From positions 640,001 to 704,000 of the forward strand of contig OY970355.1 of NCBI GenBank assembly GCA_963718525.1: DNA of 64,000 nt, written 5' to 3'. Positions 4,484 to 59,717 of this stretch are shown piece by piece. The DNA is from Candidatus Dormiibacterota bacterium (GTDB taxonomy: Bacteria; Chloroflexota; Dormibacteria; Aeolococcales; Aeolococcaceae). The first letter of the stretch is position 1, and every line of letters starts with the position of its first letter. Both the position numbers and the translations under genes were made by a program. The notes under the pieces were generated by a model that was not told where the DNA came from, did not search any database, and was given only the letters and a program-made list of their open reading frames with translations.

Positions 4484-4593
4484 GCATCCGAAGCGCGTGA
4501 GCCTCGACATTCGGTTCGCACAGGGATCTCTCTGATGCTCCCGGCGATGACCGACGGCGATCACTAAGATTCGAGCGCGCCGTCGGCATCGAC

Positions 4594-4606
4594 TAATACG
4601 AAATTG
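4594..4606 (+). repeat. Junction motif copy TAATACGAAATTG, preceded by ATCGAC
   Basis: Lies between convergent genes; 16/19 identical to the 20354-20372 copy. Confidence 0.65.
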
Positions 4607-4762
4607 CGCGCTGCTACGCGCGGCCGATAGCGCGAGCTGTGCAAGGGATTTGAGTCAGTGTCTCTAGCGTCGGATATTAAACGATTCGCTTGTTGTGATC
4701 GCCTGCGAAGGGCCAGAATTGGGTCGCTCGAGTCAATGACTGCGCCGCGCCTTCACGCTGCA

Positions 4763-6811
4763 TCATTCGGTTGTCGGCGCGACGGCGTCGATCACGAAAG
4801 CCAGCCAGAAGGCCTCGTCGAGCCACGCGTCGTAGCGTCCTGACGCACCGCCATGGCCGGCTCCCAAATCGGTCTTGAGCAGGATGGCGGCGTTGCCGTC
4901 GTCAAGCTCGCGTAAGCGAGCGACCCATTTCGCCGGTTCCCAGTAGCCGACGCGTGGATCGTTGAGCCCGGCCGTGACGAGGAGCGCGGGATGCACGGCG
5001 CGGGCGACATTATCGTACGGGGAGTAGCCGCGCATGTACTGGTACGTGGCGGCGTCCTCGGGGTTCCCCCACTCCTCGTACTCGTTCACCGTCAGTGGTA
5101 GGCTCGGGTCGAGCATGGTGGTGAGACAGTCGACGAACGGGACCTGAGCAACCACGGCGGCGCCCAGATCGGGCCGCAGGTTAACGGCGGCTCCCATCAG
5201 TAGTCCGCCAGCGCTGACGCCGCGGATCGCCAGTCGCTCGTGGTTAGTGAAAAGCTGCGCGACCAGGTGGTCGGCACAGGCGCAAAAATCAGTGAAGCTG
5301 TTGCGCTTGTTGAGAAGCTTACCGTCCTCGTACCAGTGCCTTCCCAGTTCGCCACCACCACGCACGTGGGCGATTGCATAAATGAAGCCGCGGTCAAGCA
5401 GGCTCAGCCTTTGGGAGTTGAAGGTCGGATCGACGCAGGATTCGTAGGACCCGTAGCCGTACAGCAGCGCCGGCGCATTGCCGTCCAGCTCAACGTCGCG
5501 CCGGTGGACGTACGAGATGGGCACTCTCACGCCGTCGGCGGCAAGAGCCCAGAGCCTCCCGCTCACAAAGTCGGAGGGGTTGTATCCCCCGAGAACCGGC
5601 TGCTCCTTGACGAGCGTACGCTCGCGCGAATCCATGCCGTAGTCGACCGCCGAGACCGGGGTCACCAGCGACGTGTATGCGAAGCGGAGCGTGTCTGTGT
5701 CCCACTCCGGATTGGGTCCGAATGTAGCTGTGTACACAGGCTCGGGTTGGTCGATGACGTGGGACTCCGCATCGCTCAGCCGTAGGACGCTGAGCCTCTG
5801 CAGCCCATCAGCGCGCTCAGTCAGAACGGCGTGCCGGGCGAAGAGATCCACACGCTCGAGCTTGATTCCATCACGGGGCGGGATGTACTCCCGCCAGTGG
5901 GCACGGCCAGGCGATCCGAATGGCGCTGTCATCAAGCGGAAGTTGACCGCCTCATCATTGGTCACGATGAACAGCCTGTCGCTGTGGTGATCAACCGAAT
6001 ACTCGATGCCCTGTCGGCGTGGCTCGACCACCACAAACTCGCCGGTGGGATCATCGGCACGCAGCAGATGCACCTCGCTGCTGACGCGGCTGTTCAACGA
6101 TATGGCGATGACATCCCGGCTTCGCGTGAGCGCCACAGATGCGAAGAACCGTTCGTCGGCTTCCTGGTAGAGAAGTGCATCCGCGTCGCACGCATCGCCG
6201 ACGTGGTGACGCCATACCTGCCACGGACGCATAGCGGCATCGGTGCGCGTGTAGAAAACGTAGTTGGCGTCGCTCGACCACGCGAGCGAATAGTAGACGC
6301 CATCAATAACGTCAGGAAGATCCGCGCCGGTAATGAGGTCGCGGAACCGCAAGCTATGGAGCTCGCCCCCGCTGAAGTCGACGCTGTACGCGAACAGGGC
6401 GTGGTCCGGGCTTACCACGGCGTCGGCGAGGTGGAAATACGTGTGACCGGCGGCTACAGCATTCTCGTCGAGCAGGATCTGTTCGCCGCCGCCGGCGAGC
6501 CGGCGACGACAGTGCATCGCATACTGGCGGCTTTTGAGAGTGCGCGTGTAGTAGACGTATGGGCCATGACGGATGGGCGCGCTCGTGTCGCTCTGCTGCA
6601 CGCGGGCCACGATCTCCGAGTAGACGCGTTCGCGTAACGGGCCGAGGTGCGCGAGCGCCCGTTCGGTCCATGCGTTCTCGGCCTCGAGGTGGGCGATGAC
6701 AGCTGGATCGTCCCTGTCACGCAGCCAGGCATACTCGTCGATGCGCTCGTCGCCGTGGGCGCGCTGCACGACCGGGTGGCGGGCTGGGATCGGCGGGGAG
6801 GCGCTGTGCAC
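4763..6811 (-). CDS. ptrB: Oligopeptidase B (S9A serine peptidase)
   Basis: DEYAWLRD...AENAW N-terminus; YGYGSY, HVRGGGELG, GVSAGG (Ser), NDPRV (Asp), GHGG (His); likely start GTG 6811. Confidence 0.93.
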   Translation of the reverse strand: MHSASPPIPARHPVVQRAHGDERIDEYAWLRDRDDPAVIAHLEAENAWTERALAHLGPLRERVYSEIVARVQQSDTSAPIRHGPYVYYTRTLKSRQYAMHCRRRLAGGGEQILLDENAVAAGHTYFHLADAVVSPDHALFAYSVDFSGGELHSLRFRDLITGADLPDVIDGVYYSLAWSSDANYVFYTRTDAAMRPWQVWRHHVGDACDADALLYQEADERFFASVALTRSRDVIAISLNSRVSSEVHLLRADDPTGEFVVVEPRRQGIEYSVDHHSDRLFIVTNDEAVNFRLMTAPFGSPGRAHWREYIPPRDGIKLERVDLFARHAVLTERADGLQRLSVLRLSDAESHVIDQPEPVYTATFGPNPEWDTDTLRFAYTSLVTPVSAVDYGMDSRERTLVKEQPVLGGYNPSDFVSGRLWALAADGVRVPISYVHRRDVELDGNAPALLYGYGSYESCVDPTFNSQRLSLLDRGFIYAIAHVRGGGELGRHWYEDGKLLNKRNSFTDFCACADHLVAQLFTNHERLAIRGVSAGGLLMGAAVNLRPDLGAAVVAQVPFVDCLTTMLDPSLPLTVNEYEEWGNPEDAATYQYMRGYSPYDNVARAVHPALLVTAGLNDPRVGYWEPAKWVARLRELDDGNAAILLKTDLGAGHGGASGRYDAWLDEAFWLAFVIDAVAPTTE

Positions 6812-7409
6812 GTGAGAGGAATTCGAACAATAGCGTTCTGGCTGCCCTAGCCGCTCCTTTCCAAGCGAATGCTCGCCGATAAGCGTGAAATGCCGGTGCC
6901 GCTGTGGATGGTCCACCACACGGCTTCAAAGCCGCAACCGGGGCGGGAACTGCAAAGTCAGGTCCTCGCGTCGCTGTTCCACCCTCGTCGGCGGTGGCCA
7001 ATTGGGCGGTCGACACGTCTCGGAGAACGGCAACGTCGACGCCTACAGCCTCAGTTGAAGGTGCGCTTCACATGTGCGTCGGCCGTTTGGAGTGCCGCGC
7101 CGCACCGTGCCGTCGCTTGCGCGGGAGAGGCACCTCAAGTCATCCTTCAACAGTTCGGTGAACGGCAGCGAATCGTCATCCGTTGCGCGCTCTCGTGCAG
7201 CGGTGCGCGCTCCGGACCTGAGGCGCAGCACGCACCGAGGCGCATCGCCCTCGGTCGCCAAGGATGCTCGCGCCACGGCATCCGGCGGCGCGCTCCCGTC
7301 CACGCCATGACCATTGACAAACTCCTATCGATGGGGCGCGCAATCGCTGGCGCGCTCGAGGCATGCGGGTCGTCGGTCACCTGCAGACAGACGACACGTC
7401 GCGCACGGG

Positions 7410-9380
7410 TTATCCCGCTGGCGCGAGCGCTCTCTCGGACGCCATCGGCAGACGGACGGCGAAACACGGAGATCCTGCTTCGTCGTCATACCATGCGTCA
7501 CCCCCTTGGGCAAGCGCCAACCCCCGCACAATAAACAATCCGAGTCCGATACCCCCCGGCTTCTCGGCTCCCCCCGGACGGGAGAACTTCTCGAAGAGCC
7601 GCGTGCGCATGTCGGCACTCACACCGGGACCAGCGTCGCGCACGCAGATAATCACGCCCTCTTCTGCAACCGCGGTGTCAATCCTGATCGGCGGACGACC
7701 GTGGCGAAGTGCGTTCGAGATGTAGTTGTTGAGGATTTGGACGAGGCGAACACGATCGGCCCGGACGAACAGTCGCGGACCACTGGTCTGGATGCCCGCA
7801 GCATCCGCCGGCGTGAGCGAGCCGGTGATTGAGGCGATCGTGGCCTGAACATCGACTACTTCGAGATGCATCGTCATCGAACTTCCATCCAGACGCGCAG
7901 CGGTCAGGAGGTCGTCGATCAGCCGAGCAAGACGTTCCCCATGAGCAGCAATCGCGGCCAAGGCATGGGCGTCGCGTGGCGACGTCAAACCGCCCTCGCG
8001 GTCGTCCCTGAGCGCTTCCGCGTAGCCACGGATGAGCGAGACCGGCCCACGCATTTCGTGAGCAGTCACGGAGAGGACCTCTGCGAGGCCGTCGCTTGCA
8101 CTCCTCAGCGCCACATTGGCTTCGGTGATGATTCGCGCCGCGACCTCCCGCTCCACTTGAGCCTGACGTCTGGCCGTGTGGTCACGGGTGACCTTCGCAA
8201 AGCCGACCAGCACGCCGTCTCGTTTCATTGGGGTGATGACCACATTGGCCCAGAACTGGGTCCCGTCCTTGCGAACCCTCCATCCCTCTTCTTCGTAACG
8301 TCCGGTTGCGGCAGCCTGCTCGAGTTCCTGTTCGGGATGTCGTGCCGCCTGCGCTTCCGGTGTATAGAACACCCGAAAGTGCTGACCGATGATCTCACTC
8401 GCTGCATATCCCTTGATCCGCTCAGCCCCCGGATTCCAGCTTGAGATCACGCCGTTGGGATCGAGCATGAACAGTGCGTAGTCAACCACCGCATCGACGA
8501 GGAGTCGAAACTGTTGCTCCGAGGCCATGAGCGCATCCATGGTTCGTCGCTGTTCCGAGAGGTCTTGGACTTGGAGAAAGAGGTACAGGGGCCGGCCCGC
8601 CGAGTCTCGAATCGGGGCGACGGTACTGAGCACCACTTGTGGCGCATGGTTCCGGATGATCACGTGTTCGAGCTGACTCAGACGACGATCTCGCTTTACA
8701 ACCGTGTCGAAGGCGTCGTTGAGAGCACGAGCCTCGATCGGTGCCAGGAGCTCGGCGTATCGCTTGCCTACGAAGTCTTCGCCAGGTCCACCGAGGAGCC
8801 CGGCCATCGCCCCGTTGAGGCGCACGAACCGTCCGTTGAGGGTCAGCGTTGCCATACCAATCGCGGCTTCGTCGAATGCAGCCCGGAAGCGCTCGATCTG
8901 GTCATCAAAGACCGCTGCTTCCGCTCGTTCGGCGGTGTCGTCGACATCCGCTGCGGGGACGGGCCCAGCGATTGACGATGCGCCCATTAGATCAAGGAGT
9001 GCAGCGGCGAGCACCTTGAGCGAGGTGCCCTTGTCATAGAAGCCCACGGCGCCAAGGGCACGGACCTGTTGCTCGACATCTGAGCCCTCGAAACCCGAAA
9101 AGACAACCACACGCGTCCGGGGAGAGGCCTCTCGGATGAGCGGGAGCGCTTCGATGCCGTCCATTTCCGGCATGGAGATATCCAGGAGCAGCAGGTCGGG
9201 CTGATGCGCGCGCGCCAGGTCGATTGCTTCGCGGCCGTCCCCGGCCTCAGCGACGACCTGCACGACACCGGAACCTTCAAGACGCAGCCGCACGAGATCG
9301 CGCACGTCTGTGGAGTCGTCGACAAGGACGACCCGCCACGGAGTAGGCACTCGGGTACTCCTTGAGGTCCTGATACTCAT
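7410..9380 (-). CDS. Hybrid sensor: REC-PAS-PAS-HisKA-HATPase_c
   Basis: VVLVDD/LLDISMP receiver; two PAS domains (SWNPGAERIKGY, GWRVRKDG); AHEMRGP H-box; N, DAGPG and GIGLGL boxes. Confidence 0.93.
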   Translation of the reverse strand: MSIRTSRSTRVPTPWRVVLVDDSTDVRDLVRLRLEGSGVVQVVAEAGDGREAIDLARAHQPDLLLLDISMPEMDGIEALPLIREASPRTRVVVFSGFEGSDVEQQVRALGAVGFYDKGTSLKVLAAALLDLMGASSIAGPVPAADVDDTAERAEAAVFDDQIERFRAAFDEAAIGMATLTLNGRFVRLNGAMAGLLGGPGEDFVGKRYAELLAPIEARALNDAFDTVVKRDRRLSQLEHVIIRNHAPQVVLSTVAPIRDSAGRPLYLFLQVQDLSEQRRTMDALMASEQQFRLLVDAVVDYALFMLDPNGVISSWNPGAERIKGYAASEIIGQHFRVFYTPEAQAARHPEQELEQAAATGRYEEEGWRVRKDGTQFWANVVITPMKRDGVLVGFAKVTRDHTARRQAQVEREVAARIITEANVALRSASDGLAEVLSVTAHEMRGPVSLIRGYAEALRDDREGGLTSPRDAHALAAIAAHGERLARLIDDLLTAARLDGSSMTMHLEVVDVQATIASITGSLTPADAAGIQTSGPRLFVRADRVRLVQILNNYISNALRHGRPPIRIDTAVAEEGVIICVRDAGPGVSADMRTRLFEKFSRPGGAEKPGGIGLGLFIVRGLALAQGGDAWYDDEAGSPCFAVRLPMASERALAPAG

Positions 9381-9597
9381 ATCTTATGTCAGCGTTGCTA
9401 GCCGGTGCCCACTACTCAGTCTATGTCTCCGTGAGTTCAGGCCGCATATACTAGCATCGAAGTCGTATGATGTGATAGCCTTGCTATCAGGTCAGCTTTT
9501 GAAAGCTGTTGCCCACGGATCCGGTTCGGCTAGGAGGGACCAGCGTCCTCACATCTTGATGGGTTCCTATCATCAACAACATTCGGAGGCAGGCGAC

Positions 9598-9771
9598 ATG
9601 TGCACGAGCTGCGGCTGCGGCGAGGCCAATGTGCGGCATCACGACGGCGACATCACCTACGAAGATCTCGTGAAGGCGGCGTCTGACGCGGGGATTGACC
9701 CCGAGACGGCGGCCGACAACATTCACACCTCCGCCAAACAAGCTCGCGACGGCGGCGCCTCGACCGAGTAG
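9598..9771 (+). CDS. Small Cys/His-rich hypothetical protein (MCTSCGCG...HHDG)
   Basis: GGAGG RBS before ATG 9598; 57 aa. Confidence 0.7.
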   Translation: MCTSCGCGEANVRHHDGDITYEDLVKAASDAGIDPETAADNIHTSAKQARDGGASTE

Positions 9772-9780
9772 CTACCGGAG

Positions 9781-9808
9781 GGGGTGGGGTTCGCCGCGGA
9801 CCCACCCC
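9781..9808 (+). terminator. Hairpin after the small Cys-rich gene
   Basis: GGGGTGGG...CCCACCCC inverted repeat. Confidence 0.4.
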
Positions 9809-9844
9809 CACCTCATCGCGTATTCCAGTACTGCGGGTGACGAT

Positions 9845-10717
9845 GTGAAGCACGATGCATTCCTTCCCAAACGCGCCTCGGTTGGATCGTTCGCGCCCGG
9901 AAGAGCAGCCGCAGCGCGTGCGGCGCGCAACAGCCCTGCAGTGAGGGCACTGGCCCGAGCGGGTCTCGCTGCTCGCGGACTCACTTACCTGATCATCGCC
10001 TCGATCGCGGCCCAAACTGCATTGGGTGGGACGGCTCAAAGCGCCGACCAGCATGGTGCGCTCGAGGATGTCGCATCGCGTCCCTTCGGTCGGGTGCTGC
10101 TCATTGCTATGGCTGCGGGCTTCGCTGCCTATGCACTCTGGCGTTGGTCCGTGGCTACCGTCGGCGGTGTCGGCGCTGGTGCAGAGTCTCGGGCCAAGCA
10201 GTGGGCTCAACGGCTCGGAGCGCTGGCGATGGGTTTCGTCTACGCGGGTCTTTGCATCAGCACCATTCTCGTGGTCACGGGTCGACCGACATCGTCGACC
10301 GCGCAACAGCAGCAAAGCGCGACCGCCCGGCTGCTTGCGCTCCCTTTCGGGCGTGTACTCGTGTTCGCCATCGGCGCCGGCATCGTCGTCGGCGGAGGCA
10401 TCGTTGTCTGGAGAGCGCTTACCCGAAGGTTCGAGAAGAAGCTGGCGACAGAGAAGTTGGGATCGCGGGTGCGACCTTGGGCGATCGGTTTCGGCATTGC
10501 GGGCAACGGCGCAGGGGGGGTCGTGCTCGCCCTGGTTGGGATCTTCTTGATCCAAGCGGTCGCTGCCAACAATGCTCGCGCTTCCAAGGGACTTGACCAG
10601 ACACTGCGCACCGTTGCTCACGCACCTTTTGGTCGTGTGCTGCTAGTCATCGTCACGGCCGGTCTGGTGGCTTATGGTCTGTACTCGTTCGTGGAGATGC
10701 GCTATAGACGGGTCTGA
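9845..10717 (+). CDS. DUF1206 membrane protein
   Basis: LARAGLAARG..Y, three PFGRVLL repeats, GLDQTL, GLVAYGLY..EMRYRRV; likely start GTG 9845. Confidence 0.88.
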   Translation: MKHDAFLPKRASVGSFAPGRAAAARAARNSPAVRALARAGLAARGLTYLIIASIAAQTALGGTAQSADQHGALEDVASRPFGRVLLIAMAAGFAAYALWRWSVATVGGVGAGAESRAKQWAQRLGALAMGFVYAGLCISTILVVTGRPTSSTAQQQQSATARLLALPFGRVLVFAIGAGIVVGGGIVVWRALTRRFEKKLATEKLGSRVRPWAIGFGIAGNGAGGVVLALVGIFLIQAVAANNARASKGLDQTLRTVAHAPFGRVLLVIVTAGLVAYGLYSFVEMRYRRV

Positions 10718-10935
10718 CGCCGGACCGCCCGGGCCGGCCGGCGGGGGATTGGCGCCCGACATCGTGATCCTGTGTTCTCACTGAACTTCGTCAGCCAGCG
10801 TCAAGGGCCATTAATGCTGGACGTCGGCGTGCGAACAGAGCCGACCCGCGCTTGCAAGCGGGCAAGGTGTAGCCGTGGGTACCGCCGGGTACTTCTTTAG
10901 CCGGGCCGCTCCGTCGGCCAAGATTCACCTGAGGA

Positions 10936-11208
10936 GTGACGGTGCCTGTTTTCCTTCGCTGGTTGCTCGTGGACATCATCGTTATACGTCTCTTGCGGCA
11001 TCGCCGACGCCGCCGCTATACGGATCGGTCCTACCCAGTGCGATCGCAGCAGTACAGCCGCTCGGCCGGGCGCGTCTACGGCCCAGCGGCCAGAAATTCC
11101 CGATATGCCCGCCGCAGACGGTTCTCGAGTTGCTCCGGTTGCCTGGTGCTGATCGCCGCCGTGACGCTCGGAATCGTCTTCTTGGGGATACTCGCGCACT
11201 GGGCGTGA
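10936..11208 (+). CDS. Small Arg-rich protein with a C-terminal transmembrane helix
   Basis: GAGGAG upstream; hydrophobic C-terminus GCLVLIAAVTLGIVFLGILAHWA. Confidence 0.5.
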   Translation: MTVPVFLRWLLVDIIVIRLLRHRRRRRYTDRSYPVRSQQYSRSAGRVYGPAARNSRYARRRRFSSCSGCLVLIAAVTLGIVFLGILAHWA

Positions 11209-11290
11209 TAGACATGACACGACATCCGCGATTGCGGCGAGGGGCACAGCTCGTAGCTCGCCACGCGACCCGTGTCCGCCGTGTTGGAGA

Positions 11291-11303
11291 TAATGCCAAA
11301 TTA
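11291..11303 (+). repeat. Junction motif copy TAATGCCAAATTA (exact)
   Basis: Identical at 27492 and 40288. Confidence 0.8.
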
Positions 11304-11539
11304 GCCGCTGCGACGTGTGGCCGTTGGCGAGCGTCGACAAGCGAAAGGAGGCCTTGCGTCCGGCAGCGAGAAGGAGACAGGACGCTTGATACCGCACGTA
11401 TACGCGATCAACTCAAAGCCATCTTTCGCAAATCCCGTGTCGCTGTTGCATAGGATCTTATTCCAGCCACGTAACGAGACGGTTCTATGTCCGACACCGT
11501 ACGGACGCGTGTCGCAGCTCGTTCGCACAGTCGTGGTGG

Positions 11540-12027
11540 CAGATGAACTCAAGAGTGCAGGACCCGTCGAGTGGAACGCAGTTCGCCGCGTTTCTCGGGG
11601 CGGGCTGGACGCAATCGTCGGCGTTGATACAGATGGGGCGATCGTTCTGGTCAATACAAGAGCCGGGTCGCTCATTAGTTACAGCCGAAACGAACTGCTC
11701 GGCCGCCCCGCAGACATCCTTGTGCCAGACGGCGTTCGAGGGGTCCACCCCGCCCATCGTGCGTCGCACCTCCGAAACCCGCAAAGGCGGCCGATGGGTG
11801 CCGGCATGGAGCTAGCCGGCGGGAGGATGGATGGAAGGGAGTCTCGCGCCGAAATCTCGTTGGCATCGATCGAGTTCGACGGCCGGCGCATCGTCTCCGC
11901 CGCGATTCGGGACGTCAGCGAACGCAAGCGCGCCGAGGCCAAGTTTCGAGGCCTTCTCGAGGCTGCTGCGCGAACTGTGTCGCAGCGACGTGGGAGTGCA
12001 CACTCGTCAGGTTGCAAGTGTGTCTAG
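11540..12027 (+). pseudogene. Degenerate PAS-domain sensor fragment
   Basis: DAIVGVD..GAIVLVN...LLGRPADILVP...RPMGAGMEL.G...AEISL...AAIRDVSERKRAEAKFRGLLEAA, breaking off at the start of a second PAS. Confidence 0.75.
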
Positions 12028-12090
12028 AGTGACGACGCTCCTGCCCAACGTCACGCAACAGGTGGGCACCGGTAGCGCGAGTACGGTGGC

Positions 12091-13533
12091 GTGTTGACGT
12101 GCGACAGTGCCGACCCCGTCGTTGAGCTGGTAGATACCTGCCGGCATGCGGTTGACTTGGAGTTGACCGCCGAGGCAATTCCGCACATCGTGTGGATGAC
12201 GGGGCCCGACGGCCTGACGGAATACTTCAATCGGCGTGGCACTGACTACACCGGCCTGCCAGCGAGCGCCAACTACGGCTGGGAGTGGGTGAATCTCATT
12301 CACCCCGACGACGCGGACAGCGCCCGGCGGGGCTGGGGGCATGCAATTCGGACCCAGACGTCATTCCGGATGGAGTATCGGATCCGACGCTACGACGGCG
12401 AATTCCGCTGGCACGCGTTCCGCGGCGACCCTCTTCTCGATCCTAATGGGCATGTAATCAAGTGGATCGGGACTGCCACCGACATCGAGGACGCGAGACG
12501 AGCACAGCGCTCACTGGAGCGCTCAGAGCGGGAGGCAGCCGAGCTTGCAACGTTGCTTGACACACTCCAGGAGACAGCTCCGATCGGGATTGGCTTCGTC
12601 GACCGCGACTTCCGCCTGATCCGCGTCAACGCCGCCCTCGCCGAGGTGAACGGCGCGTCGGCGGAGTCGCACGTCGGCCGACTGGTGAGTGACGTGATCC
12701 CCGAAATCTGGCCGAAGGTGGCTTCGCTGTACCACCACGTGCTCGACACCGGCGAACCTGTCGTTAACCAAGAGGTCAGCGGTCTCACCGCAAGCGATCC
12801 CAGCCGTTCCCACCATTGGCTGACGAGTTACTATCCAGTCCCCCTCGGCGGCGAGATCATCGGAATCGGGATCATCGTCGTGGACGTCACTGAGCGCAAG
12901 GAGGCCGACGAGGCGCGCGACCGGCTCACCCATGCCGCCGTGGCGGCTATGGCCGCCACCGTGGAGGCGAAGGATCCGTACACGGCGGGCCACGAGTTCC
13001 GGGTCGCCGATATCTCCGCAGCCATCGCCCGCGACCTCGGGCTTCGCGAGTTCGATATCGAGGGCATCACACTTGCCGCGCAGATCCATGATCTCGGCAA
13101 GATCGGCGTCCCGGCAGAGATTCTTGCCCGCCCCGGTCAGCTACGCGCAGCCGAGTTCGACCTCGTCCGCACGCATTCTCAAATCGGATTTGACATCGTC
13201 AAGGGCATCGACTTCCCCTGGCCTGTGGCCGAGATGATCCTGCGCCACCACGAGCGCTGCGACGGCAGTGGTTACCCGGACGGACTCCGGGGGAACAAGA
13301 TCGTCCTCGGAGCTCGCATTATCGCCGTCGCCGACACGGTGGAGGCGATGGCGTCACACCGGCCCTACCGCGCAGCCCTCGGGCTCGATGCGGCGCTCGC
13401 TCAGATTCAGGATGGGAGAGGAACTCTTTTCGATGCGGACGTTGTCGACGCGTGTGTCACGCTCTTCCGAACAGGGAGGCTCAGCCTCGGTGAGCGACTC
13501 AATGCAACCGCAGTGCGGCGGCCAGCGCCGTGA
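12091..13533 (+). CDS. PAS-PAS-HD-GYP c-di-GMP phosphodiesterase
   Basis: IHPDD PAS; KDPYTAGH, HDLGK, HHERCDGSGYP and HRPYR motifs. Confidence 0.93.
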   Translation: MLTCDSADPVVELVDTCRHAVDLELTAEAIPHIVWMTGPDGLTEYFNRRGTDYTGLPASANYGWEWVNLIHPDDADSARRGWGHAIRTQTSFRMEYRIRRYDGEFRWHAFRGDPLLDPNGHVIKWIGTATDIEDARRAQRSLERSEREAAELATLLDTLQETAPIGIGFVDRDFRLIRVNAALAEVNGASAESHVGRLVSDVIPEIWPKVASLYHHVLDTGEPVVNQEVSGLTASDPSRSHHWLTSYYPVPLGGEIIGIGIIVVDVTERKEADEARDRLTHAAVAAMAATVEAKDPYTAGHEFRVADISAAIARDLGLREFDIEGITLAAQIHDLGKIGVPAEILARPGQLRAAEFDLVRTHSQIGFDIVKGIDFPWPVAEMILRHHERCDGSGYPDGLRGNKIVLGARIIAVADTVEAMASHRPYRAALGLDAALAQIQDGRGTLFDADVVDACVTLFRTGRLSLGERLNATAVRRPAP

Positions 13534-13904
13534 GGTCATCAAAACCGTAGACGTCCTCGTCTATAGGTGTTGGCGAGGTTGCGCAACCGGTGGCCGCTTC
13601 TAGGGAGCGCCGAAGGGCCTAGGCCGCGTCCGGAAACGTCCCTTGAAGGCGTGCTCCCGGATAAGGCGAAGTGTTCGCTATGCGCCGGTGGGCTGGACGG
13701 GAACGTCCCACCGCGCGCAACCACAGCCGCTGTGAGCGTGACGGTCCACACAACTGCATGAAGGGTCAACGTCCCAGAGAGGCCAGGCAAGCGTGGTCGA
13801 GCTCGACGGCGTGAAGGATCTAACCCGACGACACACCATAGAAGGCAGAATCGCCTGCGCCACCTCCTGGCGTACGGGCTTATGCCCTGGGGCACAACCT
13901 GTGC

Positions 13905-13917
13905 TAATGCCACATTA
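13905..13917 (+). repeat. Junction motif copy TAATGCCACATTA (12/13)
   Basis: Lies between convergent genes (HD-GYP and the Ig/lectin protein). Confidence 0.7.
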
Positions 13918-14128
13918 CCTGATGCTACGTGCGACCGAAAAGACCGATGAAGGCTGCGATTTACGCTAGCATGATGCTGCCCCATCCGCCGACGCTACCC
14001 GGCAGATGGTGGGCAGTCTTGCGTTCACTCGCACTGACTGACTCACAGGCTTCGGCACCGAACACAACGTAAGGCGGTCATCCAGGCTGCAGGGGTAGCC
14101 CACGGTGCATGCTCGATAACAAGGCACC

Positions 14129-16846
14129 TCAACTCGGCTGCACGGCGTCCATCGTGACCGTGCAGAGTGCGGTGCTGTTGTGCGAGCTGACTGCGAGCCC
14201 TTGGAGCATGGGTCCGGAAACACTGAGAGTCACAGTCGAACCTGGGACGAGCGTCCACGTCGCGCCATCGGCCGACGTGTACGCTGTGAACGTCGTCCCG
14301 CTTCGCTCCACCCTGAGGTACGCCGGGACGGTGCCGGACACTGTGTCGATCCGGTTGTCCTGTCCTCCCTGCGCCGTGCGGTCCTGGACGACGATGCCCT
14401 GACCCGGAGTCACGAGCAGCATATAGGCAATCGCGCCAGGATCCGTGCTCGCACGGATCATCACTCCTGCCTTGGCCCAGGAGTTGGTGTCGGCCTGCGA
14501 GATCACGTGCGCGCTCATCGTGCCGCTGCCCGCAAGCGACTGGTAATCGAACTGGAACTGGTCGGCCGTGCCGTGGATATCGCTCCCCGCGCCCGCAATG
14601 GTCCATGTGCCGCCGCTGGACGTTGCGCTGCCCGCAACTGCAGGGCTGCCGATGTCCTGGCATGTCCATCCGCTGGGGCACGTGGGCGGCGGGGGACCCG
14701 ACGTGCCATTGACGACGACATTGTCCATGTCAACGCTGCTCAGCACGGCATTCGTGTGTGCTGTCACGGCAAGACCTTCGAAGGCGTTGGAAGGCATGGT
14801 CAGCGTCTTGGTAGATCCCGGGATCAATGTCCACGTCATCCCGTCTGTGGACGTGTATGCCGTGTAGGTGCTCCCAGCGCGGGCGACCTTGAGATACGTG
14901 GGTACTACCCCACCAACCTTGACCGTGCTCGTGGTACCTCCGGTCGCGGTCCGATAGGCGACGAGGATGCCATTGCCGGGTGTGAGCAGAGCCGAATACT
15001 CAACCGACCCGGGGTCGGTGCTCGCGCGCAGCATCACGCCCGTCTTCGCCCATGCGTTGGTGTCGGTCTGCGATGTGACGTGGGCGCTGATGTTGCCGTT
15101 ACCGGTCAACGTCTGCGCCGCGAAGAAGAACTGGTCGCCCGTGCCGTTGATATCGTTGCCGTCGCCTTGGAGAGTCCAGGCGCCGCCGGGACTCATAAGG
15201 GCACTGCCGGGTGCTGAGACAGCCCCGATATCGCCACACATCCATGGCGACGGACAGGGGATCGGTAGCGGCGCCGGCGGTTGGCTCAGTGTCAGCGCTG
15301 TGGAGTCGAATGTCGCGGTGCTGGTCGACGCACTGGTGTCGGATGCGACGGCGAAGCCAACCAAAGGCGTCGGGCCGAGCGCTGGACTCGCCGACGATCC
15401 GGCCAGCGGCTGCCAGAAGGAACCATCCGTTGACGTATAGGTTGTGAACGTCCCCCCGGAGCTCGCGATCCAGAGGTATGCGGGCGGCGACCCGCCCGTG
15501 GTGGTCAGCAGTGTCGTCTCACTGCCCTGCGAGGCACGGTCGAGAACTTCGAGTCCACCACCCGGCGTCGTGACCGCCCCATAGAACGGCGAACCCGGGT
15601 CCGTCGTCGCGCGGATGATGAGGCCGGCCTGTGCGCCAGTGCTGGCGCTGGTCTGCGATGCGAGGCGCGCGGTGACGCCGGTCCCCGCTGGCAGGGTCTG
15701 CGACAGAAGGTCGAACGAATCGCTGGTGCCGCCAAGGCCGGTCCCGCCACCGTTAATGGTCCATGTTCCTGTGCTGGTTGAGAAGGATTGGCTCCCAACC
15801 GTCGACGGGCTCCCGATATCGGCACCGCTCCATCCGCTCGCGGAGTCGTCAGTCCACATCACCCGGCTCTGGTTCGACACGAATGGGTTCGCGTCGGAGG
15901 CGACGGTGGCGACGACGACATCCTCGCCCTGCCCGGTGCCCACGTAGGAGAACGATGCCCGTCCGTTTGTATCGGTTGTTCCGCTGCCGCTCTGTCCCGC
16001 ATCGGGGCCGCTGATCACCTTGAACGTAACCTGAGCGTTGGGCAGGGCAAAACCGCTGCCGTCAAGCACGGCGGCTGTCTCGGTGACCGGCTGGCCGCCG
16101 AAGATCGTTGCCATGTTTGGGCTGAGTGTTACGGCGGCGTTGTCGGTGGCGGTGGAGCCGATTCGCCGCCACTGGATCGACTCATTCCGGCCTGCGGGGC
16201 AGGCGCCCGAGTCGATGCCGCCCGTGTCGATCACGTGCGTGGCGTCGGTCAGAGTCGTTACCACACCGGCGATCGTGAACGCCACGGTGGGCGCACCGGG
16301 CAGCGGCGTGCAGTTGCCATGCGGTGTGTCGCTGCTGTCGAAATTGTCGTACTTGGGATTGTCGCCGGATGGATTCTCGGCCAGGATGACGCTCTTTCCC
16401 GCCGGCACGGTGAACGAGCCCCAGAGGTTGTACGTCTGCCCGCCCGTTTCACCGGGTCGCACGGCGACGCTAACGTTGCTCACGACGACCGCCGTGGGTC
16501 CGGGGTTGTCGAGACGCACAGCCCCCGTGTCGTAGCACTGCGTGACCGATCCGCACTCGGCGGACTGTGGACTCGTGTTTCCGATAAAGATCGTGTTTGG
16601 CGACCCGTTCCACGGAACGGGAAACGCCGCGGACGGCGTCGGGCTATCTCCGACGTTCTCGGCATATCCGACGGATACGGTCAGCCCGTCCACGGACGAC
16701 ACGGTTCCGGCGGCGGCGGCTCGAAGCGGCGATGCGATCCCGACCCCGACGGTAGCGAAGACAGCAAAGCCCGTCCCAAGGGTCGCGAGAGATTGTCTCC
16801 AGCCCCTTCGCTGCATGTCAGTCCCCCCTGCACCGCTCTCCATCAC
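14129..16846 (-). CDS. Secreted protein with a Big-1 Ig-like domain and three ConA/DUF1349-like beta-sandwich repeats
   Basis: Signal peptide; VTF...G.TDTNGRASFSY Ig motif; three W...DIG...WT..G.G...AKAG.M.R...PG...YTS.DG..W..GLAV repeats. Confidence 0.85.
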   Translation of the reverse strand: MMESGAGGTDMQRRGWRQSLATLGTGFAVFATVGVGIASPLRAAAAGTVSSVDGLTVSVGYAENVGDSPTPSAAFPVPWNGSPNTIFIGNTSPQSAECGSVTQCYDTGAVRLDNPGPTAVVVSNVSVAVRPGETGGQTYNLWGSFTVPAGKSVILAENPSGDNPKYDNFDSSDTPHGNCTPLPGAPTVAFTIAGVVTTLTDATHVIDTGGIDSGACPAGRNESIQWRRIGSTATDNAAVTLSPNMATIFGGQPVTETAAVLDGSGFALPNAQVTFKVISGPDAGQSGSGTTDTNGRASFSYVGTGQGEDVVVATVASDANPFVSNQSRVMWTDDSASGWSGADIGSPSTVGSQSFSTSTGTWTINGGGTGLGGTSDSFDLLSQTLPAGTGVTARLASQTSASTGAQAGLIIRATTDPGSPFYGAVTTPGGGLEVLDRASQGSETTLLTTTGGSPPAYLWIASSGGTFTTYTSTDGSFWQPLAGSSASPALGPTPLVGFAVASDTSASTSTATFDSTALTLSQPPAPLPIPCPSPWMCGDIGAVSAPGSALMSPGGAWTLQGDGNDINGTGDQFFFAAQTLTGNGNISAHVTSQTDTNAWAKTGVMLRASTDPGSVEYSALLTPGNGILVAYRTATGGTTSTVKVGGVVPTYLKVARAGSTYTAYTSTDGMTWTLIPGSTKTLTMPSNAFEGLAVTAHTNAVLSSVDMDNVVVNGTSGPPPPTCPSGWTCQDIGSPAVAGSATSSGGTWTIAGAGSDIHGTADQFQFDYQSLAGSGTMSAHVISQADTNSWAKAGVMIRASTDPGAIAYMLLVTPGQGIVVQDRTAQGGQDNRIDTVSGTVPAYLRVERSGTTFTAYTSADGATWTLVPGSTVTLSVSGPMLQGLAVSSHNSTALCTVTMDAVQPS

Positions 16847-16937
16847 ATGGCGGGCCGCCCGTCAGTGTGGCAGCTTTGCGTGATGCAATACAATCTCGGC
16901 ATCTGAGGGATACAGGGGCGGGCGACCGGAGGGGATC

Positions 16938-20234: not shown

Positions 20235-20359
20235 CCCTGGCTGGGCAACCAGGGGGGACGACGACAACTCGTCGAGGCTGGCCACGTGCAGCTGCACTCA
20301 TCGAGAAGGTCTTTTTCAGGTCGGTTGGAGAGTCCTCTGGGCCGCGTCCGGACATTGAC

Positions 20360-20372
20360 CAATACGAAATTA
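20360..20372 (+). repeat. Junction motif copy CAATACGAAATTA, preceded by ATTGAC
   Basis: Near-identical to the 4588-4606 copy. Confidence 0.6.
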
Positions 20373-41490: not shown

Positions 41491-41523
41491 GGCTCCTCGC
41501 CAGCCTCGACATGTGCCGGTCTG

Positions 41524-43656: not shown

Positions 43657-44151
43657 TCACGCATGATCGAGCCCGCGATCTGCGCGGCGGAGCGCGACCC
43701 CCTCGACCGCGTTCACGATTGACGAGTACCCGGTGCACCGACACAAGTTGGAGCTGACGGACTCCCGAATGGCAGAGCGCGAAACACCTGCGGGCGATGA
43801 TGCCAGGCACGCGTAACTCACCACTAACATCCCTGACGTGCAGAAGCCACATTGAAAGGCGTTGTTGTGGAGGAAAGAGGCTCGAAGTTCCGTGGCCAGC
43901 TCGCGATCCAGGAAATCAAGTCCTTCTACCGTCACCACTCGGTGACCCCGTGCCTTCCACAACGGCACGAGACAACTCCTCACCGGCTGCTCATCGACGA
44001 GGACTGTGCAGGCACCGCATACGCCGTGTTCACAAATTGTGTGGCCACCTTGGAGACGGATCTTGTCTCGCAGGAAGTCACTCAGTGACCAGTAGAGCGG
44101 CACTTCTATCGCACATTCGACGCCGTTGATGGTGATAGTTTCGCTATCCAT
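43657..44151 (-). CDS. Molybdenum hydroxylase 2Fe-2S subunit (CoxS-like)
   Basis: CEHGVCGACTV..SC, TVEGL, QCGFCTSG, NLCRCTGY; start ATG 44151. Confidence 0.93.
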   Translation of the reverse strand: MDSETITINGVECAIEVPLYWSLSDFLRDKIRLQGGHTICEHGVCGACTVLVDEQPVRSCLVPLWKARGHRVVTVEGLDFLDRELATELRASFLHNNAFQCGFCTSGMLVVSYACLASSPAGVSRSAIRESVSSNLCRCTGYSSIVNAVEGVALRRADRGLDHA

Positions 44152-44989
44152 TGGTTCCACTCCTCGCGAGCGTGTTCCGAGTGGTCCAGGCTCGCTCGAC
44201 CAGAATCTCCGCGACCCACTCCGCAGAGAAGCCTGACTGGACCATCGCTTCTTCAACTCCGGCTCTGACCTCGTCGCGCAGCTGCGCACGGTTCGCCAAC
44301 CGGCCGACCTGGATCAAGCCCGCGCTGCCATCTCGTACCGCAAATGCGATCCGGCCGCTCTGAGCTTCGCCTCCAGCTGTTGGAATTGCCAACGCCGCGG
44401 CCAGAACGGGCACCCACGTCCCCTGCTCCCCAACCTCAAAGAAGTCCCACCCGTCGAGCCCGTCCTGCAGAGGCACCTCAAGGTGCGTGAGCAGCAGGAC
44501 TGATGTGTCGCGCTCTGGTCGCATCGAGCGGAGCTCGAGCCCGGTCAGCCTCCGGGTCTCCCCCCATGAATCGAGGACGACGGCCGCGCCACCACATGCC
44601 ATGATCGCGAGCGGGATCTCCGCGGTTGGCGACCCATGGAAGAAGTTGCCGCCCGCAGTCGCGAGGGTCCGTATCGGACCGACAGCGACCTGCGATGCCG
44701 CTTTTGAGACGAGTCCCCCATTGCCTTCGAGTGAAGTTGCGGCTAGCTCGGCCAGGGTCATGCAGCTGCCGACTGCCAGCATCGCACCGTCATCCACTGA
44801 GTGGGCACGATGAAGCTCGCTCACACCCGAGAGGTCAATAAGGCATGTGGGGCGCCGGTAACCCAAGCGCAGCTCGTAGAGCAGCCCCTGGCCGCCGGCG
44901 ACGAACATTGCCTCCGGGTGTTCCCGCCACATCGCTACGGTTTCGGCGACCGTTGTCGGACACAGGTACTCAAGCGGATAGAACTTCAT
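44144..44989 (-). CDS. Molybdenum hydroxylase FAD subunit (CoxM-like)
   Basis: AGGQGL, LIDL, IRTLATAGGN. Confidence 0.85.
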   Translation of the reverse strand: MKFYPLEYLCPTTVAETVAMWREHPEAMFVAGGQGLLYELRLGYRRPTCLIDLSGVSELHRAHSVDDGAMLAVGSCMTLAELAATSLEGNGGLVSKAASQVAVGPIRTLATAGGNFFHGSPTAEIPLAIMACGGAAVVLDSWGETRRLTGLELRSMRPERDTSVLLLTHLEVPLQDGLDGWDFFEVGEQGTWVPVLAAALAIPTAGGEAQSGRIAFAVRDGSAGLIQVGRLANRAQLRDEVRAGVEEAMVQSGFSAEWVAEILVERAWTTRNTLARSGTNG

Positions 44990-47487
44990 GCGTCGCCTGC
45001 CCCCAGCCCCACCGGTTGGGTTTGGTTGCAGAGGTGCTGCCAGTCGAGACAGGCGTGAACAAAGTCTCGATGGTGGAGCGGCAGTTCGTTGACCACGAAT
45101 CCAACGGGTCGCAGGGCATCGCTGAGTGCTGTCGCGATTGCGGCAGGTGCACCGATCGGCCCATCTTCGCCCCCCCCGCGCACCCCAAAGACATTCCCAG
45201 GCGAGAGGGTCTCGACGTGCAAGACCTCAATCTCAGGGACGTCGGTAGCGCGTGGGGTTCGGTAGCGGAAGAGATCAGTTGCGCCGGACTGCCCTGCGTC
45301 GTTGAACTCGATGAACTCGAGGAGCGCCTGGCCCAGTCCTTGCGCCACGCCTCCACGAACCTGCTCGTCGAGCAGGGCTGGATTTATGACGCGGCCGGAG
45401 TCACCGACAACGACGTACTTACGGAAGCGGATCTCACTCGTGAGCGTGTCCACAGCGCACACAACCCCGTGCCAGGCGTAGGGCGACGTGAATGGCTTCG
45501 CCGGTCGAAAACTGCTAACGGCCGACAACCCCGGTGTGATTCGGCGGGGGAGACGGCTCATCTGGAAGTACGCGACGCGGCACACATCTTCAAGCGACAC
45601 CACGCGGCCATCGAGTGCTCGAACGCCTTCCGCAGTCAGGCTGACTTCTCCGTCGGTGCCAAGGAGCGACGCCCCAATGTCCTTGATTTTCCCGGCTAGT
45701 TCCTCTGCTGCCGTGACAACAGCGCCGCCACTGATCACCGAGACGCGACTGCCCCATGATCCGGAGCCGTAGTGGGCGCTTCCCGAGCTGTTGCCGGCGA
45801 CCCGCACACATCGTGGGTCGATGCACAGCACCTCACTGACCATCTGCGCGAACGTCGTCTCATGAGCCTGTCCGGAGGACGCGGCGGCGATACGGACATC
45901 GACTGAGCAGTCCGGGTTGACCCGGACATACGCTTCCTCCCAATCCGTTACGGCTCTCACGCCCAGGCCGTCCATCGAGACGGCCGATGGCTCCGCTACT
46001 GCCGATAGCCCAATGCCGATCAGGACGCGGTCGTGCCGGCGCCGGCGCTCCTCCCGCTCCTCGCAGACCGCGCGATAGTTGAGATGCTCAAGCGTCATGG
46101 CAAGTGCCGTGCGGTACTGCCCGGCGTCATAGTGAACGCCTGCGGAATTTGGACCTGTCTGCATCTCCGGCAAGAGATTGAGCTCCTGCACCGCTGCAAA
46201 GTCCTGTCCCACTGCCCATGCCACATCCTGAAGTACCCGCTCCACCACGAAGACGCCAACTGGTGCAGCCACGCCGCGGTAAGTGCCGCCCGTTGGCTTG
46301 TTGGTCATGACGGCGCGGGTGTGATAGGAGTATTCCCCGAGGTCATAGATTGAGGGAAGACGGAAGGGCAGGGCGGCCGCCTCAACCGCCGACGAGAGCG
46401 GCGAGTACGAGTACGCTCCAGCGTCACTCGTGGAGTCCACATGGAAGGCGACGATGCGACCGGTGGAGTCATACGCGGCCACCACATCATTGACTTCCCG
46501 TCGAGCCTGAATACCATTTTGGAGATGTTCAACAGATGTCTCGAGCCATCTGACTGGGCGTCCCGTATGCATGGCAAGGAGGCAAACCGCAATTTCCTCC
46601 CTCTGCGCACCGATCTTCGCCCCGAAGCCGCCTCCTACATCGGGTGCAACGACCTCGATGTTCAACTCTGGCAAATGGAGCACGTCGGCTAGCACGCGGC
46701 GAAGCATGAGCGGGGTCTGTGTGCTCGCGGTGACCTTCAGCGTGCCATGAGTCCAGACGGCTAGGCACCCTCGTGGTTCCATGGGCATCGCGGAGATGCC
46801 GGCGGTCATGAAGCGCGTCTGAAGATTCTGATCTGCGGACATCTCACGGACCCGCTGCGCGAGGCTCTCAGACGTGATGCCAGTTGCCTCGGTCGGATAC
46901 GACCCCTCGGCGCCATCCGCGCGCGTCCCTACGGCTTCGTAGAGAATGTTCGAGCCCAGATCGTTGTACAAGATGGGCACCCGATCAGACGCGCTCCCGG
47001 CGACGAGTGCATCGACCACCACCGGAAGCGGATCGATCTTCACGACCACGTGCTGGGCCGCTGCCTCTGCCTCAGAGCGATCCGGTGCCGCGACGATTGC
47101 TACCGGGTCCCCGATGTATCGGACCTTCTCCACGGCCAAGCACCAGAACTTCGGGTTTGCGTGGGTTGGGATTTCCCAGTGCGCGGGCATCGGGGCGCTC
47201 AGTGAGGCGACATCGAGGCCTGTCATACCCACGACGTCAGGCCGATGCGGCGTCGTCGCGCGTGTCAGGTCAACCTCTCGGAGCAGGCCGTGCGCGATCG
47301 TACTCCGCACGAATATCGCCTCCAGTGCTCCCTCCGCGTCAACATCCGCAAGGTATGCTGCCGCGCCGCGTACGAATCTGGCGGCGTCGATGCGAGGAAC
47401 GCTGCTCCCCACGACTGATTCGGAGCCCGACGCCTCAGCGAGACCCCACCGCTCCGCTGACTGGTTTCCTGATCTCAACTCCTTCAC
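44986..47487 (-). CDS. Xanthine-dehydrogenase-family molybdopterin subunit (CoxL-like, not form I CO dehydrogenase)
   Basis: VRSTIAHG, PMEPRG, DVGGGFGAK, TYRGVA, SSGQAHET, GSWGSR, QVRGG..QGLG, VRGGGE. Confidence 0.93.
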   Translation of the reverse strand: MKELRSGNQSAERWGLAEASGSESVVGSSVPRIDAARFVRGAAAYLADVDAEGALEAIFVRSTIAHGLLREVDLTRATTPHRPDVVGMTGLDVASLSAPMPAHWEIPTHANPKFWCLAVEKVRYIGDPVAIVAAPDRSEAEAAAQHVVVKIDPLPVVVDALVAGSASDRVPILYNDLGSNILYEAVGTRADGAEGSYPTEATGITSESLAQRVREMSADQNLQTRFMTAGISAMPMEPRGCLAVWTHGTLKVTASTQTPLMLRRVLADVLHLPELNIEVVAPDVGGGFGAKIGAQREEIAVCLLAMHTGRPVRWLETSVEHLQNGIQARREVNDVVAAYDSTGRIVAFHVDSTSDAGAYSYSPLSSAVEAAALPFRLPSIYDLGEYSYHTRAVMTNKPTGGTYRGVAAPVGVFVVERVLQDVAWAVGQDFAAVQELNLLPEMQTGPNSAGVHYDAGQYRTALAMTLEHLNYRAVCEEREERRRRHDRVLIGIGLSAVAEPSAVSMDGLGVRAVTDWEEAYVRVNPDCSVDVRIAAASSGQAHETTFAQMVSEVLCIDPRCVRVAGNSSGSAHYGSGSWGSRVSVISGGAVVTAAEELAGKIKDIGASLLGTDGEVSLTAEGVRALDGRVVSLEDVCRVAYFQMSRLPRRITPGLSAVSSFRPAKPFTSPYAWHGVVCAVDTLTSEIRFRKYVVVGDSGRVINPALLDEQVRGGVAQGLGQALLEFIEFNDAGQSGATDLFRYRTPRATDVPEIEVLHVETLSPGNVFGVRGGGEDGPIGAPAAIATALSDALRPVGFVVNELPLHHRDFVHACLDWQHLCNQTQPVGLGAGDA

Positions 47488-58936: not shown

Positions 58937-59024
58937 GGGCTGGCATCGATTCGTTTGCCCGACGAGCGCCGCCGCCGTCCGATCGGCGTATCGTCGATCG
59001 ACTTCTGGCTAAGAGGCGTTTGAA

Positions 59025-59681
59025 ATGCACTTCACCCGATTGAGCGAATCCGACGAATACCAGCGTCAGCGCGAGGAGCTACGGGTCGCCGAATTGGATC
59101 TCATTGATCAGGCCGAACGCGTGGCTGCATTGCGGCGCACGCTGCCGGCAGACACTGTTGTCGACGACTACCAGTTGATCGACGTCGCGAGCGGCGATCA
59201 CGTGCAGCTCTCGGAACTGTTCAGTGCTCCGGGCCGGCCACTGATCCTGTATCACTTCATGTACGGCAAAGCCCAGACGGACCCATGCCCGCTGTGCACG
59301 ATGTGGATCGACGGGTACAACGCAGCGGTGCCACATCTCACGCAGAACGCGGACTTCGTCGTGGTCGCTGCGGCTGATCCCGCCGCCATCGCAGCCCACG
59401 CGGCGTCTCGCGGCTGGAACAACCTGCGCCTGCTGAGCGCCGGCGGCACCACCTACAAGTACGACCTCGGCAGCGAGGACGCCGATGGCACCCAGATCGA
59501 GTCAATCTCGGTGTTCACTCACGCCGACGACGGTACCGTGCGTCACGTCTACTCCAAGGGGGCGCAGATGGCTGACGATCGACGCGAGCGGGGCATCGAT
59601 CTGCTGACGCCGGTCTGGAATCTCCTTGATCTCACACCGAATGGCCGCCCGCTCGACTGGTACCCCTCGTTGCACTACTAG
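59025..59681 (+). CDS. DUF899 thioredoxin-like protein
   Basis: R..L..AE..L......A.RR.LP, L.ELF, YHFM, CPLC, WNLLDLTP.GR. Confidence 0.92.
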   Translation: MHFTRLSESDEYQRQREELRVAELDLIDQAERVAALRRTLPADTVVDDYQLIDVASGDHVQLSELFSAPGRPLILYHFMYGKAQTDPCPLCTMWIDGYNAAVPHLTQNADFVVVAAADPAAIAAHAASRGWNNLRLLSAGGTTYKYDLGSEDADGTQIESISVFTHADDGTVRHVYSKGAQMADDRRERGIDLLTPVWNLLDLTPNGRPLDWYPSLHY

Positions 59682-59704
59682 TCGTTTCTATCTTTCGCAA
59701 AGAC

Positions 59705-59717
59705 TGATGCCACAGTA
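59705..59717 (+). repeat. Degenerate junction motif TGATGCCACAGTA
   Basis: 11/13 to the 13905 copy; ATCGACTGATC follows (TGAT at +99). Confidence 0.5.

Follow-up and report, generated by a model that had tools for sequence, protein, structure and literature searches.

Co-oriented junction elements anchored on a tRNA-Gln(CTG) gene of Candidatus Dormibacterota, probably left by serial recombination with a Xer-like recombinase

Attachment sites centred on the anticodon of tRNA genes, class 'A' of Islander, were reportedly recognised by Williams in 2002. In the Islander survey, this anticodon-centred class accounts for 2083 of 3919 islands, four tandems of three or more are counted among the 3919, and the Xer and integron subclasses are left out by design (PMC4383910). 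The tycheposons of Prochlorococcus are islands adjoining tRNA genes, in which successive integrations push older elements inward (bioRxiv 10.1101/2020.12.28.424599). From these two systems, both accretion at tRNA genes and a scatter of partial tRNAs are already known. Here we describe an array of junction elements in a window of 64,000 nucleotides (contig OY970355.1, window position 1 being genome position 640,001) of a genome of 3,336,189 bases and 66.3% GC (G000; the other G-numbers denote other genomes of its genus). The elements share the 13-mer TAATGCCAAATTA, which a sequence-only reading of the window had taken for a recombinase arm in a dif/Xer-type cassette array. The 13-mer is likely the strand-exchange core of junctions left by serial site-specific recombination at a single tRNA-Gln(CTG) gene, in an array that a Xer-like recombinase would have built. 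The organisms, Candidatus Dormibacterota, are uncultured soil and permafrost bacteria, and we know of no described means of gene exchange for them; a literature search for Dormibacterota together with genomic islands returned nothing on such islands.

The 13-mer occurs exactly three times in the window, at positions 11291, 27492 and 40288, always on the + strand as first reported, and an exact match is present in none of 100 dinucleotide shuffles of the window. The variants previously noted, at 13905 (one mismatch) and at 4594, 20360 and 59705 (three mismatches each), also read as described. When up to three mismatches are allowed there are eight matches versus 2.24 expected, so the three-mismatch copies are not significant alone and need other support, while the exact and one-mismatch copies are far beyond chance. 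The eighth match (62089) is inside a gene and is taken as a chance occurrence. Support independent of the 13-mer comes, for the copy at 59705, from boxes B and C downstream of it (see below) and, for the copy at 20360, from its exact coincidence with the left end of a block that also occurs in G050, beginning there at a recognised core. The copy at 4594 is a candidate only, unmatched at E ≤ 10 by R1, the sequence-only model of the element. By the gene calls of a home-made, codon-usage-based caller, all seven sites are intergenic, as had been claimed. The placement between convergent genes, proposed for 4594 and 13905, held for 13905, and the sites at 40288 and 59705 were rightly placed just after stop codons, being 36 and 24 nt past them, respectively. 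The whole-genome scan that had been suggested as a check of density and strand bias, run with at most one mismatch, found six copies, all on the + strand and all between genome positions 651,291 and 728,124; the motif is neither genome-wide nor evenly spread. The GC content is 60-66% in the window and 62-63.5% between 600 and 750 kb, versus 66.3% for the whole genome. The cumulative GC skew of G000 is unclosed, being lowest at about 1.0-1.25 Mb, highest at about 2.45 Mb and flat over the island. Either the replichores are very unequal or the signal is weak.

The 13-mer forms box A of a longer, directional element (about 110 nt), in which it is followed by ATCGGCTGATCCG (box B) and CATCGACTGATC (box C), located about 60 and 95 nt downstream of the core. 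An ungapped comparison of flanks places CGACTRATC 82-95 nt downstream of four copies, with a GGCTGATCC-like motif in between. Both boxes are formed by one half-site, GnCTRATCC, repeated in direct orientation. The consensus of 51 copies starts with CTaATGccA.aTTA..CgttC and continues, after about 35 variable nt, with tGAactC...gcat.G.cTGAtCc, about 18 nt and cATCGACTAatcc; the alignment A2 contains ten copies. Model R1 gives 12 matches in G000 at E ≤ 0.015 (five training copies and seven new ones), every one of them on the + strand between 584,713 and 743,366; the low-GC island at 585-743 kb thus has at least 12 co-oriented copies. The core itself, with the consensus GC-T(A/G)AT-GCCA(A/C/G)AT-(T/C)A followed by nyCGyTCy in 42 copies, is an imperfect palindrome, GC-TRAT-GCCAMAT-YA, also written CTRAT-N5-ATYAG. 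It can be read in two ways: with arms and centre of 5 nt each or, like an anticodon arm, as a 7-nt loop closed by a stem of about 4 nt. What had been called degenerate partner arms is better described as this short palindrome plus two accessory direct repeats downstream. The two downstream boxes had escaped that earlier description, as had a tRNA-Gln junction (42886-42935) and a partial copy (35020-35110).

Searches of the window matched no Rfam family and found no tRNA gene, and seven element copies folded as RNA gave z-values from -1.55 to +1.59, no better than shuffles. The element is read as a putative protein-binding feature at the DNA level, in which boxes B and C may be accessory binding sites. 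The enriched 10-mers GGGCCGTAGG, GAACGTAACC, CTCGACCAAT and ATCGACTAC were dropped as parts of the element, being coding or paralogous sequence, and inspection by eye spoke against reading the motif as a sigma-54, -10/-35 or archaeal TATA element, as spacing and strand did not fit.

The gene for tRNA-Gln(CTG) is located at genome positions 743,711-743,785, about 40 kb beyond the window and 345 nt past the last element copy, on the strand opposite to the array. It is the sole CTG isoacceptor gene among the 47 tRNA genes of G000. Six of the 11 fetched stretches reach the end of the array, and in all six (G000, G005, G050, G016, G010 and G011) the array is ended by an intact gene for tRNA-Gln(CTG) on the other strand. 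Past the tRNA, all compared genomes are syntenic; within the array they have only scattered blocks in common, in varying order. Among 42 box-A copies in the 11 arrays, four are preceded, directly to the left of the core, by the reverse complement of the tRNA-Gln 3' half, with at least 33 of 35 bases matching; the tRNA half is decayed at one further copy (G005_66877) and scores like random sequence at the other 37. At the four tRNA-half junctions the core reads TGATCCAGAATTA (twice), TGATGCCAAATCA or TGATGCTAGATCA, in the place where the tRNA itself reads TGATCCAGAATCA; the commonest centre of the core is GCCAMAT, versus CCAGAAT in tRNA-Gln. In the window, the displaced 3' fragment is located at 42890-42928; identity to the tRNA extends through TGATCCAGAAT and ends there. 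By these junctions, box A occupies the place of the anticodon stem-loop of tRNA-Gln. The 13-mer is exact or has one or two changes, even where the tRNA half is gone. That tRNA halves are bimodal, either perfect or gone, while the 13-mer is nearly invariant, argues that boxes A to C are kept by selection and would thus be functional. At 42800-42885, to the left of the tRNA half, and to the left of a junction in contig C2 of G012 (oriented position 14001), the sequence ATCARCCG, which is the half-site of box B in reverse complement, is repeated three or four times. These repeats could represent the other arm of a single element family; as a general feature of the arm they were rejected, being present at only two of six tRNA-half junctions.

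On the array side of the tRNA-Gln gene, G005, G050 and G016 contain a gene matching PF00589, the start codon of which is about 150 nt from the tRNA. The encoded protein has 313 amino acids and R...HxxR...Y motifs (read by eye). Against family profiles it scores 119.5 bits for XerA (cut-off 220), 89.5 for XerC (335) and 81.1 for XerD (329.6), and against those of integron integrases 50.3 bits for TIGR02249 (cut-off 265) and 19 for NF011946 (435). Among solved structures, archaeal XerA and E. coli XerD come closest. The enzyme appears to be a Xer-like tyrosine recombinase, yet neither a XerC/XerD equivalog nor of IntI type. Orthologues with at least 58% identity are found on the same contig as array copies and within a few kb of them in four more genomes (G017:C184, G004:C7, G053:C10 and G042:C9), and split, truncated or stop-interrupted ones in G012, G020, G008 and G021. 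By tblastn there is one orthologous recombinase per array, and the 815 kb of arrays contained no further fragments of it. Inside the G005 array there is a second PF00589 sequence, an unrelated pseudogene. The neighbour of the recombinase gene in G005 encodes a NikA-like ribbon-helix-helix domain (37.9 bits, cut-off 27), and in the relatives a further pair of boxes B and C is located between the start of the recombinase gene and the tRNA. The window was rightly said to contain no recombinase gene. G000 and G005 match to 214 nt past the last core, and the match resumes 45 nt inside the recombinase gene and continues through the tRNA; a 2.9-kb deletion in G000 has removed the recombinase and its NikA-like neighbour, leaving the first 45 nt of the gene. 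Since the gene has been deleted, the G000 array is probably frozen, unless a paralogue with 42% identity at 1.50 Mb substitutes for it; another paralogue (37%) is found at 0.176 Mb.

Other genes are found near the tRNA in some relatives. In G011 (contig C14) an IS481-family transposase gene is situated directly beside tRNA-Gln (L021:5991-7205), in the slot that the recombinase occupies in other genomes; this gene had been a candidate integrase and was rejected as such, being an IS481-type transposase. The same IS481 end is present in G003, next to a displaced tRNA half. Contig L082, labelled as a Candidatus Saccharimonadales metagenome-assembled genome (MAG), encodes the array recombinase, 95% identical to the Dormibacterota one, and matches contig C65 of G045, probably reflecting an error of binning or labelling rather than a transfer.

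Comparison with the relatives supports the claim that the motif stands at junctions of unrelated modules, which are gained, lost and reordered with breakpoints at the motif. In four relatives the sequences are unrelated until gCTAATGCC; from there on, identity exceeds 90% over 900 nt or more. When 61 copies are compared all against all, right-hand homologies begin mostly at -3 to +18 of the core, and of the left-hand homologies, six short ones extend to the core, ending at -1 to +16. Between the 11 arrays there are 131 shared blocks (at least 600 nt long and at least 75% identical) with 262 ends, of which 15 are left ends located at -2 to +18 of a core, versus 0.4 expected. Right ends are located 12-268 nt before a core in 22 cases, versus about 4 expected. 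Among the same 262 ends there is no right end at -2 to +18 and no left end at -300 to -6. Modules are multi-gene, with genes on both strands, and range from 1 to 20 kb. The one between 20360 and 27492, with genes for a response regulator, a hybrid kinase, a solute-binding protein and a protein of unknown function, recurs in G050 between the cores at 39953 and 49366. In both genomes its homology runs from +11 of the core to about 250 nt before the next core, and the flanking neighbours differ on both sides. The diverged site at 20360 is validated, because the homology to G050 begins at its core. Some borders are less sharp: the blocks that G010 and G007 share start 160-345 nt past a core or stop 74-245 nt short of one. 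The capture of modules by a tyrosine recombinase, as the sequence-only reading had proposed, is supported both by these breakpoints at the core and by the Xer-like gene at the arrays of relatives.

The relatives compared are Candidatus Dormibacterota MAGs with a completeness of 61-92%. Counting G000, 26 of the 42 genomes of the genus contain R1 copies (25 of the 41 others). With A or C at position 9, the 13-mer occurs once each in eight of 24 sampled genomes of the genus and in none of 16 from a neighbouring family, and the reversed control pattern is found in none of these two samples. Across a sample of the order, R1 matches 14 of 25 genomes of the genus, none of 51 from other genera of the family and one of 44 from another family, the latter weakly. 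The arrays form single stretches: 11 copies over 90 kb in G050:C7 (all +), 10 copies over 42 kb in G005:C2 (all -), and 11 of the 12 matches of the genome over 85 kb in G016:C1 (all -). Over the 11 oriented stretches, 79 of 80 nhmmer matches are on the strand of the array. The sole overlap of + and - element matches, in contig C12 of G010 (376350-376554), might reflect either two elements arranged head to head or an inversion at a core.

The elements of the window are all on the + strand and differ in completeness. Three are full junction elements and training copies of R1. The first of these (27484-27607, E 1.6e-18) has box A at 27492-27504, a B-like stretch and box C, CGACTAATC, at 27586-27594. 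The next (40282-40410, E 7e-21) has box A at 40288-40300 and box C, CGACTGATC, at 40383-40391, and the last (59697-59827, E 5e-18) has the core variant TGATGCCACAGTA at 59705-59717 and box C at 59800-59808; a block shared with G016 stops 21 nt before the latter element. A diverged junction element with the core CAATACGAAATTA (20355-20465, E 0.08) forms the left end of the response-regulator, histidine-kinase and solute-binding module. Solo cores are present at 11291-11324, where exact TAATGCCAAATTA is followed by about 20 nt of conserved post-core sequence without boxes B and C (matching R1 positions 11-44 only, E 0.15), and at 13900-13934 (TAATGCCACATTA, E 0.13). The latter is the left border of a module (13998-20344) common to G016 and G010, and the G016 block begins 93 nt past the 13905 core. 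The candidate diverged core at 4594-4606, TAATACGAAATTG, is preceded by ATCGAC and has 11 bases in common with the 20360 core. At 42886-42935 the displaced tRNA-Gln 3' half, as its reverse complement, is fused to a tRNA-like core, TGATCCAGATTA, which is followed by the post-core signature CTCGTTCC (blastn, 92.5% over 40 nt).

A partial element at 35020-35110 (+) consists of box C and the next 80 nt, without box A; it is 83% identical over 92 nt to G010, its homologue in relatives being the left end of the CHAP-gene module. In G010 this left end is contiguous, with core, box C and its next 90 nt, and gene. In G000 the piece from box C on is found at 35020-35110 and the remainder 38 kb leftward, at genome positions 636,759-637,068 (window -3241 to -2932); here the module is both split and permuted, not merely interrupted. 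A truncated Mutator-family transposase fragment (41392-41886, - strand; PF00872, profile positions 84-165 of 379) is outside the att system. At 44144-47412, genes for a molybdopterin-dehydrogenase large subunit and a FAD-binding subunit adjoin each other (Pfam). Beyond the window, at genome positions of about 714,972-718,919 (window coordinates 74972-78919), unannotated open reading frames of 866, 162 and 289 amino acids have sizes like those of an operon for large, small and medium subunits; the two loci suggest paralogous carbon-monoxide-dehydrogenase-like genes carried as separate modules. The open reading frame with the strongest coding score of the window (60056-63523, 1155 amino acids) starts 340 nt past the 59705 junction and matches no Pfam family at E ≤ 0.001.

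Like islands that target tRNA genes, the array has an intact tRNA at one end, co-oriented displaced 3' fragments, a probable crossover inside the anticodon loop, flanked by the stem as its inverted repeat, and, in G005, G050 and G016 but not in G000, a tyrosine recombinase beside the tRNA. It differs from them in that most junctions are without a tRNA fragment, the centre of the core is not that of the tRNA, and the enzyme is small and Xer-like. Each member of an Islander tandem is required to have its own integrase and tRNA fragment, but here there is one recombinase per array of at least ten junctions, and 37 of 42 copies have no fragment; the survey counts just the four tandems mentioned above. 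The array shares with tycheposons the accretion on the tRNA side, the scattered partial tRNAs and degenerate elements, and adaptive cargo modules. It differs from them in phylum and habitat, in the absence of any replication or helicase module seen in the array, and in having a conserved 110-nt three-box junction instead of tRNA snippets. Integrons and CALIN arrays, as generally understood, also have one recombinase heading an array of co-oriented sites between unrelated cassettes, and a CALIN array outlives the loss of its integrase, as in G000. Unlike in integrons, the cassettes here are multi-gene, 1-20 kb long and encoded on both strands, the platform is a tRNA gene, no integrase scores as IntI-type, and seven copies, folded as RNA only, gave no attC-like hairpins. 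With the pdif/Xer modules of Acinetobacter plasmids and with IMEX, as commonly described, the array has in common a Xer-type family of enzymes, modules without recombinase and short bounding sites, but here a chromosomal array with its own dedicated recombinase is built of sites that are tRNA-derived, not dif-like, and all point the same way. In pdif modules the sites alternate in orientation. Integron, dif/pdif system and classical tandem array each disagree with the array in one or more of the features tested. Different from Islander islands and tycheposons are the number of junctions per array (at least ten), the single recombinase, the three-box junction, the non-tRNA class of cores, the Xer-like enzyme and the phylum.

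Other explanations of the array can be weighed against serial recombination at the tRNA. The array might consist of decayed, self-sufficient integrative elements, each of which entered tRNA-Gln with its own integrase and later lost both integrase and tRNA fragment, so that there never were cassettes moving in trans. Tandem accretion and scattered partial tRNAs known elsewhere, from the Islander (PMC4383910) and tycheposon (bioRxiv 10.1101/2020.12.28.424599) reports, favour such a history, and the unrelated PF00589 pseudogene and the decayed tRNA half at G005_66877, both in the G005 array, fit it. Gradual decay is however at odds with the bimodal tRNA halves (four near perfect, one intermediate and 37 absent) beside a 13-mer that is exact or has one or two changes, with modules down to 1 kb, with a centre, GCCAMAT, unlike the CCAGAAT of the tRNA, and with the lack of further recombinase fragments in the 815 kb of arrays searched by tblastn. 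We regard it as unlikely, though deserving of serious attention. A dif/pdif-type module array moved by the housekeeping Xer pair, close to what was first proposed together with a likeness to loxP, gains something from the Xer-like character of the array-linked enzyme and from the two paralogues in G000 (42% and 37% identity), either of which is possibly XerC/D. This origin was not borne out by the comparison, and we judge it very improbable: the site derives from the anticodon arm of tRNA-Gln(CTG), all sites are co-oriented, and a dedicated recombinase, below the XerC, XerD and IntI cut-offs, adjoins the array. The anchor is moreover the tRNA gene and not the terminus, the island (0.58-0.74 Mb) being off the turns of the GC skew (about 1.0-1.25 and 2.45 Mb).

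A reading of the motif as a promoter element or operator through which a transcription factor controls the island genes is suggested by its short intergenic palindrome (TAAT-N5-ATTA) with direct-repeat half-sites nearby, and the pair of boxes B and C between the recombinase start and the tRNA could serve autoregulation. A regulatory site would however hardly keep one strand whatever the orientation of the neighbouring genes, lie between convergent genes or after stop codons, coincide exactly with breaks in homology, be fused to tRNA halves and be confined to one island; here the earlier argument against a simple promoter operator was sound, and the idea is, to us, even less probable than the housekeeping Xer pair. 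Least credible of all is a dispersed repeat of REP/MITE type or a small RNA gene, to which the many copies of a conserved noncoding unit (about 110 nt) might point, but which is contradicted by the absence of an Rfam family, the unremarkable folding of the seven copies, the lack of inverted ends, and the single orientation and region. Several observations weigh against serial recombination at the tRNA itself. With 37 of the 42 copies lacking a tRNA half, the junctions did not all result from classical tRNA integration. No PF00589 match is present between 600 and 750 kb of G000, the recombinase being gone from its array (a search for PF00665 in the same interval was also negative). The block-end counts are non-independent, coming from kin genomes and in part from one module seen in several pairs, and so overstate the number of independent events; several block borders are 90-350 nt off a core. 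When contigs of four public runs (X2, X3, X5 and X20) were compared with positions 9000-28900, no joint at a core was found; contig cover in X2 and X3 drops past about 20,300, a gap in cover which proves nothing. Absence of the element from 16 of the 42 genomes is uncertain, most of these being incomplete MAGs.

In the mechanism that we propose, the Xer-like recombinase would recognise the symmetric anticodon arm as a core, with the 7-nt loop region as overlap, and would insert, exchange and delete multi-gene modules at the cores, each module carrying a core with boxes B and C at its left end. Serial exchanges of this kind would produce a co-oriented array in which some 160 kb of accessory DNA, lower in GC, has accumulated. 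Junctions with a tRNA half would record exchange with the tRNA gene itself, and GCCAMAT junctions without one would fit exchange between sites in the array or on modules. Modules without a recombinase gene may have been moved by the enzyme in trans, in the manner of integrons, a possibility that we put somewhat below even. A fuller version, in which the tRNA gene serves as a cassette-capture platform, is offered more tentatively. One Xer-like recombinase with its NikA-like helper would shuffle multi-gene modules devoid of a recombinase gene by way of double-stranded mimics of the anticodon arm, and the GCCAMAT sites, as a compatibility class separate from the CCAGAAT of the tRNA, would let this traffic spare the single-copy tRNA-Gln(CTG) gene.

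The cargo of the island includes carbon-monoxide-dehydrogenase-like operons, two-component systems and genes for the catabolism of sugars, peptides and aromatic compounds. About 5% of the G000 genome is accessory DNA ordered by one sequence-defined recombination site. This site, through model R1, provides a searchable marker for a genus-wide flexible gene pool, and a defined pair of enzyme and site. If the modules do move in trans, the arrays of these bacteria would represent a second, independent invention of the integron principle, with multi-gene cassettes and double-stranded sites.

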